From assembly GCA_047456295.1 (NCBI GenBank), contig CP179887.1, positions 303,159 to 367,158 on the forward strand: a DNA stretch of 64,000 nt. Direction: 5' to 3'. Source of the DNA: Candidatus Nealsonbacteria bacterium. GTDB lineage: Bacteria > Patescibacteriota > Minisyncoccia > Minisyncoccales > JANBVM01. The notes under the pieces are model-generated. The model was not told the DNA's origin, made no database searches, and saw only the letters and a list, made by a program, of their open reading frames with translations. Shown piece by piece: positions 43,409 through 53,357 of the stretch (positions are counted from its first letter, which is position 1; every line of letters begins with the position of its first letter). A program made the translations under genes and the position numbers.

Positions 43409-44155
43409 TTATTGACTTAACAAAATCCTCTCTAGAGCCTCAGAATAATTTCCATTTTCAAAATCTTGTTTTGCTTGTTCTAAAATCTCCTCACCTTCTT
43501 CAGTGAAAGTGGTCTTTTCCATGTCTTTAATCAGCAATTCCGCCACTACTTTAACAGGATTTAATTTTTCATCAATTTCCAATCCTGCTATTCCATATAA
43601 CGTCCCTAATATTTCCTTGTTTTTATCTAATTTTTGGGTTTCTTCAGCTATCCCTTTTATTACCAACGAATCAGAGGTAGTAGCTGCCATCTTTGTCAAG
43701 CTTTTAACTGCTTCAAAAACGCTTGCCTGATATTCTTTTAGAGCTGGTGCTAATTTCCTCACTTCATTATTCTGGGCAATCTGGTTTAATTCCTCCAGTC
43801 TCTTGTTGACCAACTCTAAATTCAACCTGGGTCTTTCTTGTTCAGAAGACAAGATTATCTGGCTCCTTTCTGTTATTTTTTTTAAATAATACAATGATTC
43901 ACCAGGCAAAGCACCCTGGGAAAACTCAAAAAAGCCCAACAAAAGTAAAACCAAAAACAAACCAGCATAGGCTGGCCTGAAAAAAGGAAATAACACTGCT
44001 CTTTTTTCCTCTCCTAAAATCTGGGTTTTAGTCAGCAAAACCCAGTCTTTTCTGGGTTTAATCTTTCTTAATTCTTTTATTTGTTTGATTAGTTTGGTTT
44101 CAGTCATAAAACAGCCCTTTTTTAGGCTTATCTTTATATATGACGAGTGAGACAA
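43409..44155 (-). CDS. Single-pass membrane protein, putative anti-sigma factor (DUF5667-like ectodomain)
   Basis: 248 aa. TM FFRPAYAGLFLVLLLLGFF, followed by LYYLKKITERSQIIL. Lies immediately downstream of the ECF sigma gene (8-nt gap). A start at 44107 (MTETK) is also possible. Confidence 0.55.
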   Translation of the reverse strand: MSHSSYIKISLKKGCFMTETKLIKQIKELRKIKPRKDWVLLTKTQILGEEKRAVLFPFFRPAYAGLFLVLLLLGFFEFSQGALPGESLYYLKKITERSQIILSSEQERPRLNLELVNKRLEELNQIAQNNEVRKLAPALKEYQASVFEAVKSLTKMAATTSDSLVIKGIAEETQKLDKNKEILGTLYGIAGLEIDEKLNPVKVVAELLIKDMEKTTFTEEGEEILEQAKQDFENGNYSEALERILLSQ

Positions 44156-44163
44156 GCTTTTTA

Positions 44164-44679
44164 TTACACCTCTTTTATTTTGCTTTTTAGGGCTTTTAAA
44201 GCCCGGTGAAGCAGAACACGGGTAGCTTCCTCTGTCCTGCCTAAAAGCTCAGCTGTCTCGGGAATAGATAGGTCATCTAAATAGTGCCAGATAATGACAT
44301 TTTGATAATCTTCCTTTAAATCAGATAGGGTTTTTTTAATATTCTGGATATCTGAATTCAATTCAGCTTGCTTTTCCAAATCATGTCTTGGATCAATAAT
44401 AAGAGGATTATCAACAGAAATAATGTGAATCTTGCCTTTCTGCCTGTAATAATCAATAACTAAATTCCTGGCGGTTTTATATAAAAATGCCTGAATATTT
44501 TCAATTTCCTCACCCTTTTTCTTAAAAACCGCCCAGGTTCTTGAAAAAGCTTCAGAAGTCAAATCTTCTGCTGTTTCTTGAGAATCCACCTTTAACACAA
44601 CAAATCTATAGATTTTATCTATATATTTATCGTAGATTTTACTAAACAGTTCTCGTGGTTTTTGCATAGGAAATTTCAA
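44164..44679 (-). CDS. ECF-type RNA polymerase sigma factor (sigma-70 regions 2 and 4)
   Basis: 171 aa. AEDLTSEAFSRTWAVF and FLYKTARNLVIDYYR are region 2. LSIPETAELLGRTEEATRVLLHRALKALK is region 4. Confidence 0.88.
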   Translation of the reverse strand: MKFPMQKPRELFSKIYDKYIDKIYRFVVLKVDSQETAEDLTSEAFSRTWAVFKKKGEEIENIQAFLYKTARNLVIDYYRQKGKIHIISVDNPLIIDPRHDLEKQAELNSDIQNIKKTLSDLKEDYQNVIIWHYLDDLSIPETAELLGRTEEATRVLLHRALKALKSKIKEV

Positions 44680-46928: not shown

Positions 46929-46989
46929 AGGAGTTTTTCACAGTTTAGGGTTTGTTTTTTGGTTTAGGACTTGTAAAATTAAAAAAATG
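46929..46989 (+). promoter_or_regulatory. Putative promoter of the 46987-52059 operon, possibly leaderless
   Basis: TTGTTT (46952-46957), 16 nt, TAAAAT (46974-46979). The ATG at 46987 is only 7 nt past the -10 box and has no SD. Confidence 0.4.
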
Positions 46990-47547
46990 AACAAGCTTAT
47001 AAGGCTTTTATTTTTAATTATTGTTTTACTTCTCATTGTTGGAGGTTTTTTTTATTGGGAAAATCAAAAAGATGTAATGAAATTAAATAAGAATTTACCC
47101 GAAGGAGTAAGGGTAGTAAAAACTTTAAATGGAAAGTATAAAGTAGTGAATAAAATAGATGGATATGAATTTAAGGTTCGTGATGAATGGGGAGGAATAG
47201 AAGAAATTGAATATATACCAGAAAGAACAGAAAAAGGATATACTGCGGCTAGTATTGAGTTTGAGGGAAGAAAAGGAGGATCAAGAATTATTTCTATTGA
47301 TCGTTTTAAAACTGAATTGTTAGATTTTAACTTAGGAATTTGGGCCAGAACCTTTTTTGATACTTTTGAACTAGTTGGTAATTTTAAGGAAGATAAAGTA
47401 GGAGAATTTGAAATATTAAAAACTAAAGAAGAAGTACACTTGATGGGTATGTATGTATATTTTTTTAAAAAGAATTCTATAATCTATGCAGTTACTTGTG
47501 GTTCAGAAGAATTTATTCAAGATATTATTATTAATGGAAAATGGTAA
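46987..47547 (+). CDS. Membrane-anchored hypothetical protein
   Basis: 186 aa. N-terminal TM LIRLLFLIIVLLLIVGGFFYW. The stop overlaps the next start (ATGGTAA, 47541-47547). Confidence 0.6.
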   Translation: MNKLIRLLFLIIVLLLIVGGFFYWENQKDVMKLNKNLPEGVRVVKTLNGKYKVVNKIDGYEFKVRDEWGGIEEIEYIPERTEKGYTAASIEFEGRKGGSRIISIDRFKTELLDFNLGIWARTFFDTFELVGNFKEDKVGEFEILKTKEEVHLMGMYVYFFKKNSIIYAVTCGSEEFIQDIIINGKW

Positions 47548-48860
47548 AGCGCAATTATATTAATAGAATTAAACTTTATCTAAAAAGAGCATTGTTTTTG
47601 GCGATTACGTTATGTGTAATCGCCAATTTTATATTAGGAAATATCGTTTTTGCCCAAAAAATAGAAATTAGTGATAAGGATGTAGAAAGAATAAAAACAG
47701 GTTTAGATTTAATGAAAGCACTAGTAAACTTTACTATTTCAGAAGATAAACTAAAAACTATTTTAAATACAACAATCAGTGTCGGGGAAGTCTCTACCGA
47801 TATCACTTACGGATTACTTGTTTTAAGTGCCTTAAACGAGATGGAGTTAATAGATTTAGTGGTCTCTCAGAGATATAAGACAGAGGCAAGAACTTATTTC
47901 AACAGTGTTTTAAATCAACGATTAAATCTGATTAATTACTATACAGGCATAGGCTATGATCTTCCCAGGGTAGTATCGGGAGCTATTACCAGTCCGATAT
48001 CAGCTCTCACTTTAAATACATTTTCAATTACTAATAAGGCTATTGATATCTTTATTGCTTTTGAGAATATAAGAACGATGAAATTATATGATGGTTTGTG
48101 GTTTTATTTTGATTTAAGGAGAAATAATGAATCTCATGAAACAGCTTGGGATGATGTGAGGGAAATAATTGGTTTTGCAATTCAAACAACTTCCTTTTTA
48201 GGTTCAGCAAGAAGAGAAGATAATAACTCTCAATTAGAATCTCAATTCATCACTCTCTGGGATAAATGGGGACCTTATATTACTCCTAATGGAATAAGTG
48301 AAGAAGTTAAACAACAGGCTCGGATAGAACTTAGGGATAGTCTTATTTTTGCAATTAAAAAATATCAATTTGTTGAAGAAGAACCTAAGCCTTCTTTTTC
48401 AGATAAAGCGAAATTATCTTTAAATAATTTATTGGAGAAAATAAACAAAATAGGAGTATTTGTGGCAAATACTGGCAAAAATATTCAAGAAACAGCCCAA
48501 GAACAATTAAATAAAATAAGCTCACAGATTCAAACATTAACAGCTTTTGTAAGTAGTTTTACACCAGGTATGGCTGTAAAAGTAGAGGAGGTTTTAGAAC
48601 AGTTAGTTGAGCCAGAAATTGTAGAAAAAGAAACAGAAATAAGTAAATTATCAGTAGTAGTAGAAACACAAGAATTGTTACAGACAGGAGGGCCAGAACC
48701 AAGTTTGGACAGGCTAAGCCTGTCCAAAGAAGAAATTCAAGAAATAATTGATGATATTTCTGAAAGAGTTGATGTTCTTTCACAAGAGGTGGCGAAATTG
48801 ACGGGGGGGGGGGGAGAAAGACACCCCCAGACAAAAGTTCGAGGAATCGGATATTACTGA
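47541..48860 (+). CDS. Membrane-anchored hypothetical protein; probably the N-terminal part of a larger G-tract-interrupted surface protein
   Basis: 439 aa. TM/signal ALFLAITLCVIANFILGNIVFA. The frame terminates 46 nt after a G12 run, and the +1 frame is open from 48802 into the next ORF. Confidence 0.6.
   Translation: MVKRNYINRIKLYLKRALFLAITLCVIANFILGNIVFAQKIEISDKDVERIKTGLDLMKALVNFTISEDKLKTILNTTISVGEVSTDITYGLLVLSALNEMELIDLVVSQRYKTEARTYFNSVLNQRLNLINYYTGIGYDLPRVVSGAITSPISALTLNTFSITNKAIDIFIAFENIRTMKLYDGLWFYFDLRRNNESHETAWDDVREIIGFAIQTTSFLGSARREDNNSQLESQFITLWDKWGPYITPNGISEEVKQQARIELRDSLIFAIKKYQFVEEEPKPSFSDKAKLSLNNLLEKINKIGVFVANTGKNIQETAQEQLNKISSQIQTLTAFVSSFTPGMAVKVEEVLEQLVEPEIVEKETEISKLSVVVETQELLQTGGPEPSLDRLSLSKEEIQEIIDDISERVDVLSQEVAKLTGGGGERHPQTKVRGIGYY
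48704..48728. repeat. Palindromic element TTTGGACAGGCTAAGCCTGTCCAAA (copy 2, inside the coding sequence)
   Basis: Contains the exact reverse complement of 45500-45523. Encodes SLDRLSLSK. Lies 75 nt upstream of the G12 tract. Confidence 0.9.
48803..48814 (+). repeat. Homopolymeric G12 tract at the junction of two ORFs (candidate slipped-strand phase-variation site, or an assembly indel)
   Basis: acGGGGGGGGGGGGagaaag read directly. Loss of one G joins frame 47541.. to frame ..52059. Confidence 0.9.
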
Positions 48861-48984
48861 AACCGAAGAAATATCAGAGGATATTGAAAAAACAGAGGTT
48901 AAAGAGTTAGAACAGAAATTATGTGAAAAAACTCCAACCAATTATCCGGCAAGGAATACAATAATCATTAATGAAATTGCCTGG

Positions 48985-51900
48985 ATGGGAACTACTAATT
49001 CGGCAAATAATGAGTGGATTGAATTAAAAAATATTTCTGGAAGTGAGATTAATTTAGATAATTGGCAGTTTTTAGATAAGGATAAAAAAATTAAAATAAT
49101 CTTTACCGATCAGCACATTATTCAGAGGAACGGATTTTTTCTTTTAGAAAGAACAGATGATGAATCTCTACCAGGATTATCAGCTGATTTAATTTATACT
49201 GGCACTCTTGGTAATATAAACGAAGCCCTATATCTTTTTGATAAAAATTGTCAGCTTCAAGATGAAGTCCTGGCTTCCCCAAACTGGCCGGCTGGAGACA
49301 ATTCTTCAAAGAGGACAATGGAACGAAGATATGATTTAGAATGGCAAACCAGTGGTAATATTGGAGGTACACCTAAAAAGGAGAATAGTAGCGGTTATTA
49401 TGAATATTATGGCGGTGGAGGCGGAGGTACAACCCCTACCCCTTCTCCAGTAAAAATTTTAATTACAGAAGTCCAAATAGCTAGTGCTTCTAGCACCAAT
49501 GATGATTTTATTGAGCTTTATAATCCAAATCTTGAAGATGTTGATCTAACTAATTGGTATATCCAAAGAAAAACAGAAAATGCATCTGATTTTTCAACTT
49601 ATGCTAAAAAAGATTCATTTTCAGCAAAGAAAATTTTAGCTAAAAGTTATTTTCTTATTGCTAATGCTTTATCCACCTTTTCAGCTGACATCACAACTAC
49701 TTACCCTTTAACTAAAAATAATACTCTTTACTTAAAAAATCCGGAGGGAGAAATAATTGATATGGCTGGATGGGGCCAAGCCCAAGATTCTGAAACTGCT
49801 CCAGCAGAAAATCCGCAACCTGGTAAAAGTATTGGCAGAAAGTGGTCAACAACTACCGAGAGTTATATTGATACTGATAACAATTACGAGGATTTTAAAA
49901 TTCAAGAGCCAACACCTAAAGCAAAAAATAAAGCAGAAATAGAGCCAGAATCAGAGCCGGAAAATCAAATACCGATTGCTTCATTCACTTATACTCCACA
50001 AAATCCTGCTGTTGGCGAGCAAATTTTCTTTCATGCTGCTTCTTCCACTGATCCTGATGGAAAAATTATTAGTTTTATCTGGGATTTTGGTGATGGTAAC
50101 TCAACAACTACAAATCAAACTACGACAATTCATCTTTTTACCACTTCAAGTGATTTTATAATCACACTTATGGTGATAGATAATGCTGGAGCGACGAGTT
50201 CTCCTGCCACGACAACTATAGGGGTAACAGAGACTCCAGAAGAAGAAACGCCGAGCTTTTCTGTTGTTATCAACGAGATTGGATGGATGGGAACCAAAAA
50301 CTCTTCATCTGATGAGTGGATGGAATTATATAACAATACTGATGAGAATATTAACATTGCTAACTGGTCAATTTATGGAGCTGATACTGAAGAATGTTTG
50401 AATTTCTCAGATGCCGATGGTACATCAACCATAATTATTGCTCCTCACGATTATTTGATATATGCCAATAATAAAGAAAGCATAAAGAATTCTGAGGGTT
50501 TAAGCATTATTGATATCTGGGATGCTACCATAGGAATGAATAATACATCTCCTGGACAATTGATTCTTTATAGTGCCCCAGATTGCCAGGGTAATATGGT
50601 AGATATTGCCAATCAGTCTACTGGAAACTGGTTTGCTGGTGAAGCTTCTCCGTCTTATATCTCAATGGAAAGAATCAATCCGAATGCCCCAGCAACAGAC
50701 TCTGCCAATTGGGCAAGCAACAATTTAATTACCAGAAATGGATTAGATACCGAAGGGAATAAAATTAACGGCACCCCAAAATCAGAGAATAGTGTTTCCA
50801 AATCAGAAACTCAAACTCCCACCCTGCTGCCTTTTGATGAATTTGATGAACTTACCTTTACCTATCTTGGCAGTCCCTATATTATTAGAAATACCCTATA
50901 TGTCTTGGAAGGAAAGACCTTGAAGATTGAACCAGGAGTAACAATAAAATTTGTCCCCCGGTGGGGAGCTGAAATTAGAGGAACCTTGGAAGCAGTAGGT
51001 AAAGAAGGAAAAGAGATTATTTTTACTGCAAAAGGTGATGGATATTGGTCGGGAATTAAATTTAAAAATCATCAACCGGAAAATCAGATTACTTCTCGAC
51101 TGGAACACATTAAAATAGAAAAAGCCAGAATATGTCTGAATACGGATTGCACTAGAACTACTATGTTAAGCGTTGATCAAGCTACCATTAGTCTTAAAAA
51201 CTCGGTGTTGGAGAGCGATAACTGGAGTAAAATAGCAATCTACTTAAATAATTCTTCTTCAACCTTAGAGAATATTGTTTTTTCAAGATTTAATATTTCT
51301 ATTCATATTCAAGGAGGATCGCAAAAAATAAAGAATTGCAGCTTCTTTGAAAATTCTTCTGGAATTCATATAGCTTACGGTTCTAATACTAAAATCGAAG
51401 GAAACACTTTCAGAAACAATGGAACTCCAATTTATCTTAATGCTGCTTCTTCTTTTTTTGAAGGAAATATAGTTGAAGATAACATTCTTGACGGAATCTC
51501 AGTGGGAGCAGGCTATCTTCCTACCACAACCTGGCAGGCTGATTTACCTTATATTCTTGAAAAGGGAGCAGTGGCGCTTGGTTCAATTCTCACCCTTGAA
51601 CCAGGAACGATAGTAAAATTCAGTAATGGCGGAGGAATGGAAATTTATGGAAAAATTATAGCTCAAGGAACTTCCGCTCAACAGATTATTTTCACCTCTC
51701 TAAAAGATGACAGTTATGGTGGTGACACTAACAATGATGCTACCACCACTCAACCTGCTCGTGGGAGTTGGCGTAATATTCGTTTTAATTCTTCTGATTC
51801 TATTTTGGATAACGTCATTATTAAATACGGCGGAAGAGAAGTAAAAGATTTGCCTTGGAGCATGAATGTTGGAGCTATCAGCTTGAATGAGGATGTTGAA

Positions 51901-52059
51901 ATTTCAATTAAGAACTCATTAATTGAAGAAAATGTTTATGCTATTTCTTTTCCAAACACTACTAGTTGTGAAACAATTATTGCAAGAATTAATCAATTTG
52001 AAACAGAAAATACTATCTTTAAGGATAATAAATATCTTACCTATCCTAAGTGCCCTTAA
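48985..52059 (+). CDS. Large secreted surface protein with three lamin-tail domains (LTD), a PKD domain and C-terminal right-handed beta-helix repeats
   Basis: 1024 aa from the first ATG. LTD signatures are (IIINEIAW)MGTTNSANNEWIELKN, ILITEVQ...DDFIELYNP and VVINEIGWMGTKNSSSDEWMELYN. The PKD signature is PIASFTYTPQNPAVGEQIFFHAASSTDPDGKIISFIWDFGDGN. Repetitive N/G/I-rich beta-helix turns fill the last ~380 aa. The first LTD starts upstream of the annotated ATG. Confidence 0.8.
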   Translation: MGTTNSANNEWIELKNISGSEINLDNWQFLDKDKKIKIIFTDQHIIQRNGFFLLERTDDESLPGLSADLIYTGTLGNINEALYLFDKNCQLQDEVLASPNWPAGDNSSKRTMERRYDLEWQTSGNIGGTPKKENSSGYYEYYGGGGGGTTPTPSPVKILITEVQIASASSTNDDFIELYNPNLEDVDLTNWYIQRKTENASDFSTYAKKDSFSAKKILAKSYFLIANALSTFSADITTTYPLTKNNTLYLKNPEGEIIDMAGWGQAQDSETAPAENPQPGKSIGRKWSTTTESYIDTDNNYEDFKIQEPTPKAKNKAEIEPESEPENQIPIASFTYTPQNPAVGEQIFFHAASSTDPDGKIISFIWDFGDGNSTTTNQTTTIHLFTTSSDFIITLMVIDNAGATSSPATTTIGVTETPEEETPSFSVVINEIGWMGTKNSSSDEWMELYNNTDENINIANWSIYGADTEECLNFSDADGTSTIIIAPHDYLIYANNKESIKNSEGLSIIDIWDATIGMNNTSPGQLILYSAPDCQGNMVDIANQSTGNWFAGEASPSYISMERINPNAPATDSANWASNNLITRNGLDTEGNKINGTPKSENSVSKSETQTPTLLPFDEFDELTFTYLGSPYIIRNTLYVLEGKTLKIEPGVTIKFVPRWGAEIRGTLEAVGKEGKEIIFTAKGDGYWSGIKFKNHQPENQITSRLEHIKIEKARICLNTDCTRTTMLSVDQATISLKNSVLESDNWSKIAIYLNNSSSTLENIVFSRFNISIHIQGGSQKIKNCSFFENSSGIHIAYGSNTKIEGNTFRNNGTPIYLNAASSFFEGNIVEDNILDGISVGAGYLPTTTWQADLPYILEKGAVALGSILTLEPGTIVKFSNGGGMEIYGKIIAQGTSAQQIIFTSLKDDSYGGDTNNDATTTQPARGSWRNIRFNSSDSILDNVIIKYGGREVKDLPWSMNVGAISLNEDVEISIKNSLIEENVYAISFPNTTSCETIIARINQFETENTIFKDNKYLTYPKCP

Positions 52060-52080: not shown

Positions 52081-52104
52081 GCCCATCGCTGTGGGCATTT
52101 TTTA
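52081..52104 (+). terminator. Intrinsic terminator after the LTD protein gene
   Basis: GCCCA-tcgctg-TGGGC followed by ATTTTTT. Confidence 0.6.
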
Positions 52105-52175: not shown

Positions 52176-53357
52176 TTGATTATTGGTATAATGATTTACC
52201 ATTATTTTATGTTTACAGAAGAACAAATAAAATCAATAAGAGGGAAGGAAATAGTGCCTGAATATAAAAACATTTTTCCACCAACTTTAAGTAGGCTTTA
52301 TAGTAATGAACTGGTTAGCTTAATAGGTGAAGCAAATCGGGCTATAGGTAATCTAAATAGCTATGCGAGAATTGTTCCCAATCCCGATTTGTTGATAGGG
52401 CCTATGTTGTTAAGAGAGGCGTTGGCAAGTTCAAGGATTGAGGGCACTGAAGCTACCGCAAGAGATATTGTTCAACACGATGCGGGAATAAAGTTGCCTC
52501 CCAAGATAAGGGGGGAGGCCCTTGAAGTAATAAACCACAGGGAATCGACTAAATTAGGTTTATATTTATTAGACAAAAAAGGTCTTCCGTTAGTTAATCG
52601 GGTAATTAAAGAAATGCATAAAAAATTGATGTTCGCAGTAAGGGGCGAAATGCGTCGCCCAGGCGAGTTCAGAGAAGGCTCTAATGCTGTAGCAAGAAAA
52701 AATGATATCGATTCAATTATATTTTTACCGCCTCCCGCAGATAAAGTCGAAGGTTTAATGAAAAATTTGGAAAAATATTTGAATGAAAAAAATTCAGACA
52801 TCGACACTATCTTAAGATGTGCGATAGCTCATTATGAATTTGAAGCAATTCATCCTTTCGCCGATGGAAATGGAAGACTAGGGAGAGTCTTAATTTCTCT
52901 ATTTTTAATAAAAGAGAGGGTGCTTGAGTATCCATTATTATATTTAAGCGGTTATTTACTTAGAGAAAAAGATTTATATTATAAAGCATTATTAGAAATA
53001 ACAACGCAAGAAAATTGGGGGCTTTGGTTCAAATTCGTTCTACGAGGAGTAAAAGAACAGGCATTAAGGTCTCGAAATATATTAGAAAGAATTTATTCTT
53101 TATATAAAAAAGATAAAGATATTGTAGAAAATAATATTAAAAAAAGTATATATGCACCTCGATTAGTAGAAAAAATTTTTATGTTCCCTGTTATTACAGG
53201 CACACAGGCCTCTAAACTACTTCGATCAAGACACACTACTGCTATGAATCTTTTAAAAGAAATGACAAAACTTGGGTTGTTAAAATCGGATATCAGGAAG
53301 AAGCGTAATATTCCTTTCTATAATGAGAGGTTAATCGCGTTATTAGAAGAAGCTTGA
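52176..53357 (+). CDS. Fic-family protein (AMPylase-type) with N-terminal inhibitory-helix motif and C-terminal wHTH-like region
   Basis: Active-site motif HPFADGNGRLGR. SSRIEG matches the (S/T)xxxE(G/N) auto-inhibition motif. The track start is TTG 52176; ATG at 52209 (MFTEEQIK) is more plausible. Confidence 0.88.
   Translation: MIIGIMIYHYFMFTEEQIKSIRGKEIVPEYKNIFPPTLSRLYSNELVSLIGEANRAIGNLNSYARIVPNPDLLIGPMLLREALASSRIEGTEATARDIVQHDAGIKLPPKIRGEALEVINHRESTKLGLYLLDKKGLPLVNRVIKEMHKKLMFAVRGEMRRPGEFREGSNAVARKNDIDSIIFLPPPADKVEGLMKNLEKYLNEKNSDIDTILRCAIAHYEFEAIHPFADGNGRLGRVLISLFLIKERVLEYPLLYLSGYLLREKDLYYKALLEITTQENWGLWFKFVLRGVKEQALRSRNILERIYSLYKKDKDIVENNIKKSIYAPRLVEKIFMFPVITGTQASKLLRSRHTTAMNLLKEMTKLGLLKSDIRKKRNIPFYNERLIALLEEA

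Follow-up and report, generated by a model that had tools for sequence, protein, structure and literature searches.

In Campylobacter, Neisseria, Haemophilus and Helicobacter, runs of at least eight G or C residues act as hypermutable contingency sequences and often reside in genes for surface proteins; poly-G/C contingency loci are found, in particular, in Campylobacter jejuni and in Neisseria (e.g. pilC and the lgt genes). In Helicobacter pylori, the phase-variable outer-membrane and fucosyltransferase genes carry poly-C/G or CT tracts, and futA and futB contain a translational frameshift cassette by which the OFF state is partly rescued. Buchnera and Blochmannia possess genes that are frameshifted at poly-A tracts and rescued by transcriptional slippage. 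Bacteria of the candidate phyla radiation (CPR), or Patescibacteria, are ultrasmall, mostly uncultivated and live attached to other cells; to our knowledge, surface variation and the control of attachment in these bacteria are largely unknown. Here we describe a candidate contingency locus in a 64-kb stretch of the Candidatus Nealsonbacteria contig CP179887.1 (positions 303,159 to 367,158; hereinafter, the window): a run of 12 G residues (G12) that splits a gene (47541-52059) for a predicted surface protein containing lamin-tail domains (LTDs), a PKD domain and a beta-helix into two open reading frames, ORF A upstream and ORF B downstream of the tract.

The locus resembles those of C. jejuni and Neisseria in that an intragenic G run of about 8-13 nt is located in a surface or host-interaction gene, one-base changes switch the reading frame, and the length of the run differs between closely related strains. 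It differs from them in that the host is an ultrasmall, uncultivated patescibacterium with 34% GC and one such tract in the 64 kb in view, in that the tract is located 28% into the gene, at a domain boundary, so that what remains in the OFF state is an entire anchored N-terminal module and not just a short peptide, and in that the tract lengths on record are all out of frame. As in the H. pylori genes, the homopolymer frameshift produces a C-terminally truncated rather than a full product, and slippage during expression may leak the OFF state; unlike in H. pylori, there is no conserved slippery heptamer or stimulator, and the protein family is different. The similarity to Buchnera and Blochmannia consists in the small, symbiont-type genome and in a gene that is interrupted at a homopolymer yet evolves under purifying selection, whereas the run itself consists of G and is compositionally anomalous for the genome, in contrast to the poly-A/T runs of those AT-rich genomes. 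Finally, dozens of lamin tail domain-containing proteins of 1,200-1,660 aa from Nealsonbacteria, Wildermuthbacteria and other CPR metagenome-assembled genomes (MAGs) share the architecture and the N-terminal domain of the protein described here; these are encoded by uninterrupted ORFs, unlike the window clade, which alone has a poly-G tract at the junction. A search of the available literature found no report of simple-repeat phase variation in CPR/Patescibacteria and nothing relevant on the sequencing runs, on homopolymers in Nealsonbacteria or on the lamin tail domain in Patescibacteria. The mechanism is a textbook one; what is presented here is a new candidate, in a lineage for which no description of the phenomenon was found.

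The G12 homopolymer, read directly from the sequence, occupies positions 48803-48814 of the forward strand within the local sequence tggcgaaattgac-G12-agaaagac (48790-48820), where the coiled coil of the encoded protein (…EVAKLT) gives way to the acidic linker (EKDTPRQ…). It is the sole run of G or C longer than 6 in the window, the next longest being 6; runs of A and of T reach at most 8 and 9, respectively, and the number of G runs of 12 or more expected in the window under a first-order model is 0.0017. The tract is longer than the instability threshold for contingency tracts, which for G/C is about 7-8 or more. ORF A (439 aa, forward strand) reads across the tract and ends in …EVAKLTGGGGERHPQTKVRGIGYY at a TGA (48858-48860) 46 nt past it, the last 14 residues (ERHPQTKVRGIGYY) being an out-of-frame tail. 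In the +1 frame, the TGA at 48799-48801 is followed by a sequence that is open from 48802 to 52059, in which the first start codon is the ATG at 48985, preceded by a leader of 61 codons with 0 stops and 0 ATG, GTG or TTG. This leader is the longest among the 47 ORFs of at least 150 aa in the window (the runner-up has 39 codons); judging by base composition, the probability that such a stretch lacks a stop is about 0.015, and that it lacks both stop and start codons, about 0.001.

In silico removal of one G produces a single ORF of 1,505 aa plus stop, with the junction …KLTGGGEKDTPRQ…. More generally, G11 (or G8, or G14) places the two parts in frame, G12 shifts the downstream part to +1 and G10 shifts it to -1, the respective products of G11, G12 and G10 being 1,505, 439 and 461 aa long. 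Upon re-reading of the sequence, the coordinates of the tract, ORF A, its stop, the +1 frame and the ATG at 48985 that are given in a first-pass annotation of this DNA proved correct, as did its statements that the start-less, stop-less leader is improbable by chance and that loss of one G fuses the ORFs into one gene. The junction peptide KLTGGGG predicted in that annotation has to be amended: G11 encodes KLTGGGEKDT, with three Gly, and four Gly correspond to G14.

Comparison with homologues indicates how the locus should be read. An exhaustive search of 1.84 billion representatives identified 53 family members at E<=1e-30, of which 34 are at least 1,000 aa long; among the shorter members, most align with no more than a portion of ORF A and probably derive from fragmented contigs. 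Proteins of 1,200-1,660 aa have N-termini that match ORF A. A protein search with ORF A alone could miss a long ON-state allele; hence, the search was repeated with the 1,505-aa reconstruction, which yielded many end-to-end matches of 1,450-1,560 aa from Nealsonbacteria, Wildermuthbacteria and other Patescibacteria. At nine loci (L008, L009, L010 and L012-L017), the junction is read through in a single frame; the reconstructed protein aligns end to end with those of L009, L010, L012 and L013. The ORFs of the loci fetched with the N-domain are about 1,290-1,565 aa long; the homologues that span the junction as single ORFs of about 1,300-1,560 aa show 43-67% identity (67% for L008 and 62% for L012). 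In this family, an N-terminal domain with the YDGLWFYFD and other motifs is followed by LTDs and a beta-helix in one polypeptide, and these features are present here as well. In the homologue alignment, the coiled-coil motif (EEIQEIIDDISERVDVLSQEVAKL) is followed by the acidic linker and, beyond the linker, by the conserved sequence LCEK.PG.YP.RN.IIINE[IV]AWMGT.NSANDEWIELKNIS, which begins upstream of the called ATG, so that the called start is the Met of AWMGT, inside the first LTD.

Within comparative sequence analysis, it can be considered proven that 47541-52059 is a single gene, which a frameshift in the G tract has divided. Two separate genes, each with its own start, are what the gene callers and the NCBI annotation list, but the called ATG lies within LTD1 with the conserved LCEK..P.RN.IIINE sequence upstream of it, the 61-codon leader contains no start codon, no promoter-like site precedes ORF B, ORF B alone would be without a signal peptide of its own, and the nine homologous loci are single ORFs across the junction; this possibility is therefore extremely improbable. 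More specifically, neither a promoter-like nor a terminator-like site was found on the forward strand between 48600 and 48985; the presence of such a signal between the two ORFs was accordingly rejected. The placement of the called ATG inside the first LTD, as well as a single fused ORF in related genomes, which the first-pass annotation had named beforehand as a check, are borne out by these comparisons; its scenario of two independent genes, under which the proposed switch would fall, is ruled out by the single-ORF homologues and by the position of the ATG. The three LTDs and the PKD domain that it had assigned to the downstream part are recovered by Pfam as well, and the match to the beta-helix is weak.

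Two further loci of the family differ in their downstream organization. In L005 and L006, the gene is cut inside the first LTD (L005:4831-5100, L006:3615-3650) and is followed by genes on the opposite strand, which further along in L005 include a type I restriction-modification and GmrSD-like cluster. The locus appears prone to rearrangement.

The length of the tract could be compared across three strains. The window and L001, an independent Logan assembly (run DRR463593), both have G12 and are 100% identical at the DNA level over 8,114 bp. L002 (run DRR463592), with 96.2% DNA identity to the window, also has G12, and L003, from JGI metagenome 3300029812 and with about 92% DNA identity to the window, has G10. 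The 12 nt on either side of the tract are identical in all three strains, and the ORF A of L003 (P0003) ends in a different out-of-frame tail, …KLTGGGRKTPPDKSS…; the observed lengths thus correspond to two different wrong frames. Among the family loci compared, a poly-G tract at the junction is limited to the close clade of the window. A Thr-Gly codon pair occupies the homologous site elsewhere (ACA GGT GAA GAA in L008, ACG GGT AAA in L004), and judging by these codons, the tract grew out of such a pair. GGG accounts for 14% of the Gly codons in the window, and a Gly6 run in the same gene (49411-49428) is encoded by GGC GGT GGA GGC GGA GGT in all three strains; given this codon usage, the poly-G tract is not simply a product of glycine coding. 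A poly-G sequencing-tail artefact at a chimeric join was considered as well and rejected, the flanks being contiguous in homologous proteins (…LTG|E…) and the tract being present in three assemblies from two centres.

A break close to the same site was detected in an independent lineage. L004 (ENA ERZ27293342, contig k141_457762, 1413-1480), a homologue with 48% identity, is frameshifted no more than 10 codons past 'KLTG': the sequence reads ACG GGT AAA GAA AAG TTG AGA ATG AGA AAA AAT TAG, and the linker and LTD go on in the -1 frame. There is no long homopolymer at this site, only A4 and A6 runs, with an A AAA AAT heptamer directly before the stop. Of the 53 representatives, L004 alone matches ORF A in full and ends at about 435 aa; the break may be coincidental or erroneous, or it may represent repeated truncation at this domain boundary.

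Selection was assessed from dN/dS ratios (nonsynonymous to synonymous substitution rates), calculated by the Nei-Gojobori method. The values are 0.31-0.34 for ORF A and 0.28-0.53 for the whole post-tract part (1,082 codons), within which LTD1-2 shows 0.13-0.26 and the beta-helix 0.28-0.39. The window and L003 differ by 228 post-tract substitutions, and both are still open, whereas none of 5,000 simulations with 228 random substitutions was stop-free (with 53 substitutions, 7.8% were). Net indels outside the tract are multiples of 3, and no second lesion is present in the 3.2 kb downstream in any of the three strains. Judging by these substitution patterns, the post-tract part is under purifying selection rather than decaying, and the frame state of the tract changed between the lineages while selection kept the downstream 3.2 kb intact. 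Such a pattern fits a fast reversible switch and also fits an intact gene with a miscalled tract length; it does not fit a long-standing pseudogene.

The PKD-LTD3 segment (approximately 50333-50629) is the sole highly diverged mosaic of the post-tract part (dS of 0.35 and dN of 0.21 against L003, to which blastn does not align it), and residues 205-232 or so of ORF A (approximately 48150-48240) are wholly different among the window, L002 and L003. These two hypervariable segments suggest recombinational cassette exchange in a surface protein. The PKD-LTD3 segment looks like a recombinational mosaic more than like the work of a diversity-generating retroelement.

The explanation that we consider the best and somewhat more probable than all others taken together is slipped-strand ON/OFF switching of one surface-protein gene. 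Under this scenario, a poly-G tract would have arisen from a Thr-Gly pair at the point where the N-terminal module adjoins the acidic linker, and its length would shift by slipped-strand mispairing during replication. With G11 (or G8, or G14), the full secreted or membrane-anchored surface protein of about 1,505 aa would be produced; with G12 or G10, the frameshift would lead to a stop 5-40 codons further on and to a product of 439-461 aa, i.e. the anchored N-terminal module with a tail of 14-40 residues. The sampled populations would be predominantly OFF, with the truncated product, and the state would be reversible owing to the hypermutability of the tract, so that the downstream 3.2 kb would stay under selection. 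The tract marks the precise border between the N-terminal module (signal or anchor, helical domain and coiled coil) and the linker that leads to the distal domains; hence, what the OFF state yields is the N-module, complete and anchored, and not a random fragment. We infer that such changes in length take place often and can revert within one population, and that the switching is adaptive.

The proposal of phase variation, already put forward in the first-pass annotation, is thus supported in part. The tract lengths differ (G12, G12 and G10), and 1,082 downstream codons without a stop are under purifying selection; tract length, frame toggling, polymorphism between strains and downstream selection, all features of contingency loci, are observed here. 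Several observations weigh against it. The occurrence of both ON and OFF lengths, another such feature, is not seen: all three close strains are out of frame, with no in-frame allele (G11, G8 or G14) in any of the three strain-level assemblies or otherwise on record. The closest full-length database protein is only 62% identical to the 1,505-aa query, in a search that failed to list the ORF B of the window itself and is therefore of imperfect sensitivity for close relatives. Systematic miscalling of homopolymers, although unlikely, is possible, and the evidence covers 64 kb of the genome and comes from assemblies. The absence of the ON length from three assemblies is weak counter-evidence, with a probability of about 30% if lengths were random. 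When ORF B and the upstream 186-aa ORF were looked up by exact sequence, the same Logan contig was the sole result, without further samples of the strain; a protein search with the linker and LTD1-2, using a tool that appears to favour matches of query-like length, yielded no close relatives, the proteins obtained all being short and of a generic LTD type.

The same missing in-frame allele would be accounted for if the tract were in frame (e.g. G11) everywhere, the gene were intact, and G12 and G10 were consensus miscalls. Long homopolymers are the main class of indel errors of long-read platforms, the 689-kb contig of the source MAG suggests long reads, and the strong conservation of the downstream ORF is what an intact gene would show. 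However, G12 was obtained in two independent assemblies of the window strain and again in a second strain, from another run, and a third dataset, from another centre, has G10, which would require errors in opposite directions; furthermore, the 28.5-kb Logan contig, which is k-mer based, implies that the reads were accurate. We consider an error of this kind unlikely, and it would still leave an unusual, intrinsically unstable G11 tract. Equally unlikely, in our assessment, is recent irreversible pseudogenisation, whereby the gene would be on its way to being lost, with the tract as no more than the site of the first lesion. Gene loss is common in reduced symbiont genomes, and along with the uniformly out-of-frame strains, other members of the family are broken (L005 and L006 cut in LTD1 by rearrangement, L004 frameshifted) and the mosaic segments show a locus in flux. 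Against such decay stand the absence of a second lesion in 3.2 kb of three strains, dN/dS values well below 1, and the neutral simulations, 0 of 5,000 of which are stop-free at the observed divergence. Moreover, two lineages with different lengths imply that the frame state changed after their split with the remainder intact, and a frameshift within a run of G10-12 is mechanistically easy to reverse. A long-fixed pseudogenisation is thus unlikely, whereas a very recent lesion is a possibility.

The frame could also be corrected during expression, by slippage of RNA polymerase or the ribosome on the G run, so that short and long isoforms coexist without a change in the DNA. An identical-base run re-pairs after a one-base shift in either direction, so that both G12 (which requires +1) and G10 (which requires -1) could be rescued, and selection would persist although every sampled genome is out of frame; L004, too, is broken within 10 codons of the same site, with A AAA AAT directly before the stop. 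Programmed frameshifts, however, keep a fixed frame relation, whereas here the relation is +1 in the window and L002 and -1 in L003; no stimulatory RNA structure is apparent (folding z = -1.2 for 48780-48880 against shuffles), and outside the clade, the homologues need no correction, being in frame. Transcriptional slippage in bacteria has been documented chiefly at A/T runs. We regard correction in expression as quite improbable as the explanation, although it could coexist with switching at the DNA level and add leakiness to the OFF state. A dedicated gene with programmed ribosomal frameshifting or transcriptional slippage was rejected in view of the lack of a conserved fixed-frame slippery site and of a stimulatory element. 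A more elaborate possibility, to which we assign only a small chance, is a selected switch at the domain boundary between the anchored N-module alone and the full 1,505-aa LTD/PKD/beta-helix protein; under this proposal, truncation would have arisen more than once (in the poly-G clade and in L004), and expression slippage may give both isoforms.

If slipped-strand switching indeed takes place at this locus, contingency loci operate in minimal CPR genomes, and the LTD/PKD/beta-helix family is singled out as a target of fluctuating selection, exerted by attachment to the host, by phage or by predation; annotators would also be warned that 'two hypothetical proteins' at such sites can be one gene. 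If, in addition, the switch is one selected at the domain boundary, it would mark the first description of a contingency locus from an episymbiotic CPR bacterium and would point to a role of the protein as a determinant facing host or phage.

Table 1. Features of the split surface-protein gene and its immediate surroundings (positions in the window)
Feature	Positions	Strand	Remarks
Upstream partner ORF	46987-47547	+	186 aa, conserved, N-terminal hydrophobic segment
Whole reconstructed gene	47541-52059	+	1,505 aa if G11 (or G8 or G14)
N-terminal secretion signal or signal-anchor	47541-47657	+	read from the translation by eye
ORF A with G12	47541-48860	+	N-domain and coiled coil (residues 1-421), Gly run, out-of-frame tail
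Start-less, stop-less leader	48802-48984	+	acidic linker, LCEK..P.RN motif, first LTD1 residues (IIINEIAW)
ORF B as called	48985-52059	+	1,024 aa; start is an internal Met of LTD1
Second lamin-tail domain	49441-49776	+	residues 214-325 of the 48802 frame; best Pfam LTD stretch
PKD domain	49963-50220	+	PF18911 (8e-16) and PF00801
Terminator-like GC hairpin and T run	52081-52096	+	22 nt past the stop of the large gene

The reconstructed protein consists of an N-terminal signal or anchor, a family-specific alpha-helical N-domain, a coiled coil, the acidic linker, two LTDs, the PKD domain, a third LTD and a parallel beta-helix (Table 1). Residues 1-39 comprise MVKRNYINRIKLYLKR followed by a 22-residue hydrophobic stretch that ends in VFA/QK, a pattern that is conserved in homologues; from the translation, this N-terminus could be either a cleaved signal or a membrane anchor. 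ORF A is identical to the hypothetical protein ACKKMR_02015 of the Candidatus Nealsonbacteria MAG. It has no Pfam match, and a PDB sequence search with ORF A returned only a meaningless coiled-coil match (E = 0.006). The AlphaFold2 model of ORF A, obtained from a 10-sequence alignment, is all-alpha, with a mean pLDDT (predicted local distance difference test) score of 45.6, which is too poor for a fold search. In the downstream part, Pfam detects LTD PF00932 (E = 2.4e-35, three stretches in total) and, weakly, NosD/beta-helix; the PDB sequence matches are limited to the PKD domain and include the PKD domains of collagenase ColH. The domain content and the N-terminal signal or anchor, the latter identified by eye, suggest a product that may be surface-exposed or interact with the host or phage and that may mediate attachment.

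The upstream partner ORF has no Pfam match, and an ORF of 186/187 aa is also found as a neighbour in L003, L005 and L006. The stop of this 186-aa ORF overlaps the start of the large gene (ATGGTAA), and the two are therefore probably co-transcribed and translationally coupled. The hairpin past the large gene is the likely end of the transcription unit. The remainder of the window looks like an ordinary CPR chromosome, with genes for MurJ, SecA, a polysaccharide-synthesis cluster, ClpB and HtrA-like proteases. Upstream of the large gene, in divergent orientation (43409-44679, reverse strand), are genes for an extracytoplasmic function (ECF)-type sigma factor and a DUF5667 protein; the same arrangement of sigma factor, DUF5667 protein and 186-aa ORF is present in L005, and the surface-protein gene may be under ECF sigma control. 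Directly downstream, at 52176-53357 within the segment 52060-53538, is a Fic/DOC-family gene that is missing from L002, the strain with 96% identity, and is accordingly a strain-specific insertion or deletion adjoining the surface-protein gene.

A perfect palindrome with an 11-bp stem (TTTGGACAGGCT AAG CCTGTCCAAA) is located at 48704-48728 within ORF A, some 75 nt before the G tract; compared with L008, the peptide that it encodes, SLDRLSLSK, constitutes an insertion of 7 residues. Two other poly-G tracts were noticed in the family. In L007 (Rifle ANAN16 scaffold_57244, 2267-2284), a G8 run adjoins a 10-N gap at the Gly-rich linker between LTD1 and LTD2, the linker that in the window corresponds to 49411-49428 and is encoded by mixed Gly codons; in this family of LTD surface proteins, the Gly linkers may repeatedly give rise to poly-G tracts, which break assemblies. 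In L016 (GTDB MAG contig CAZKCH010000002.1, 10216-10224), an intergenic G9 run is found shortly past the homologous large gene and the terminator of that gene, between TTGACT and TAGGGT with a 16-nt spacer. It resembles a homopolymer in a promoter spacer, which is another classical phase-variation layout.

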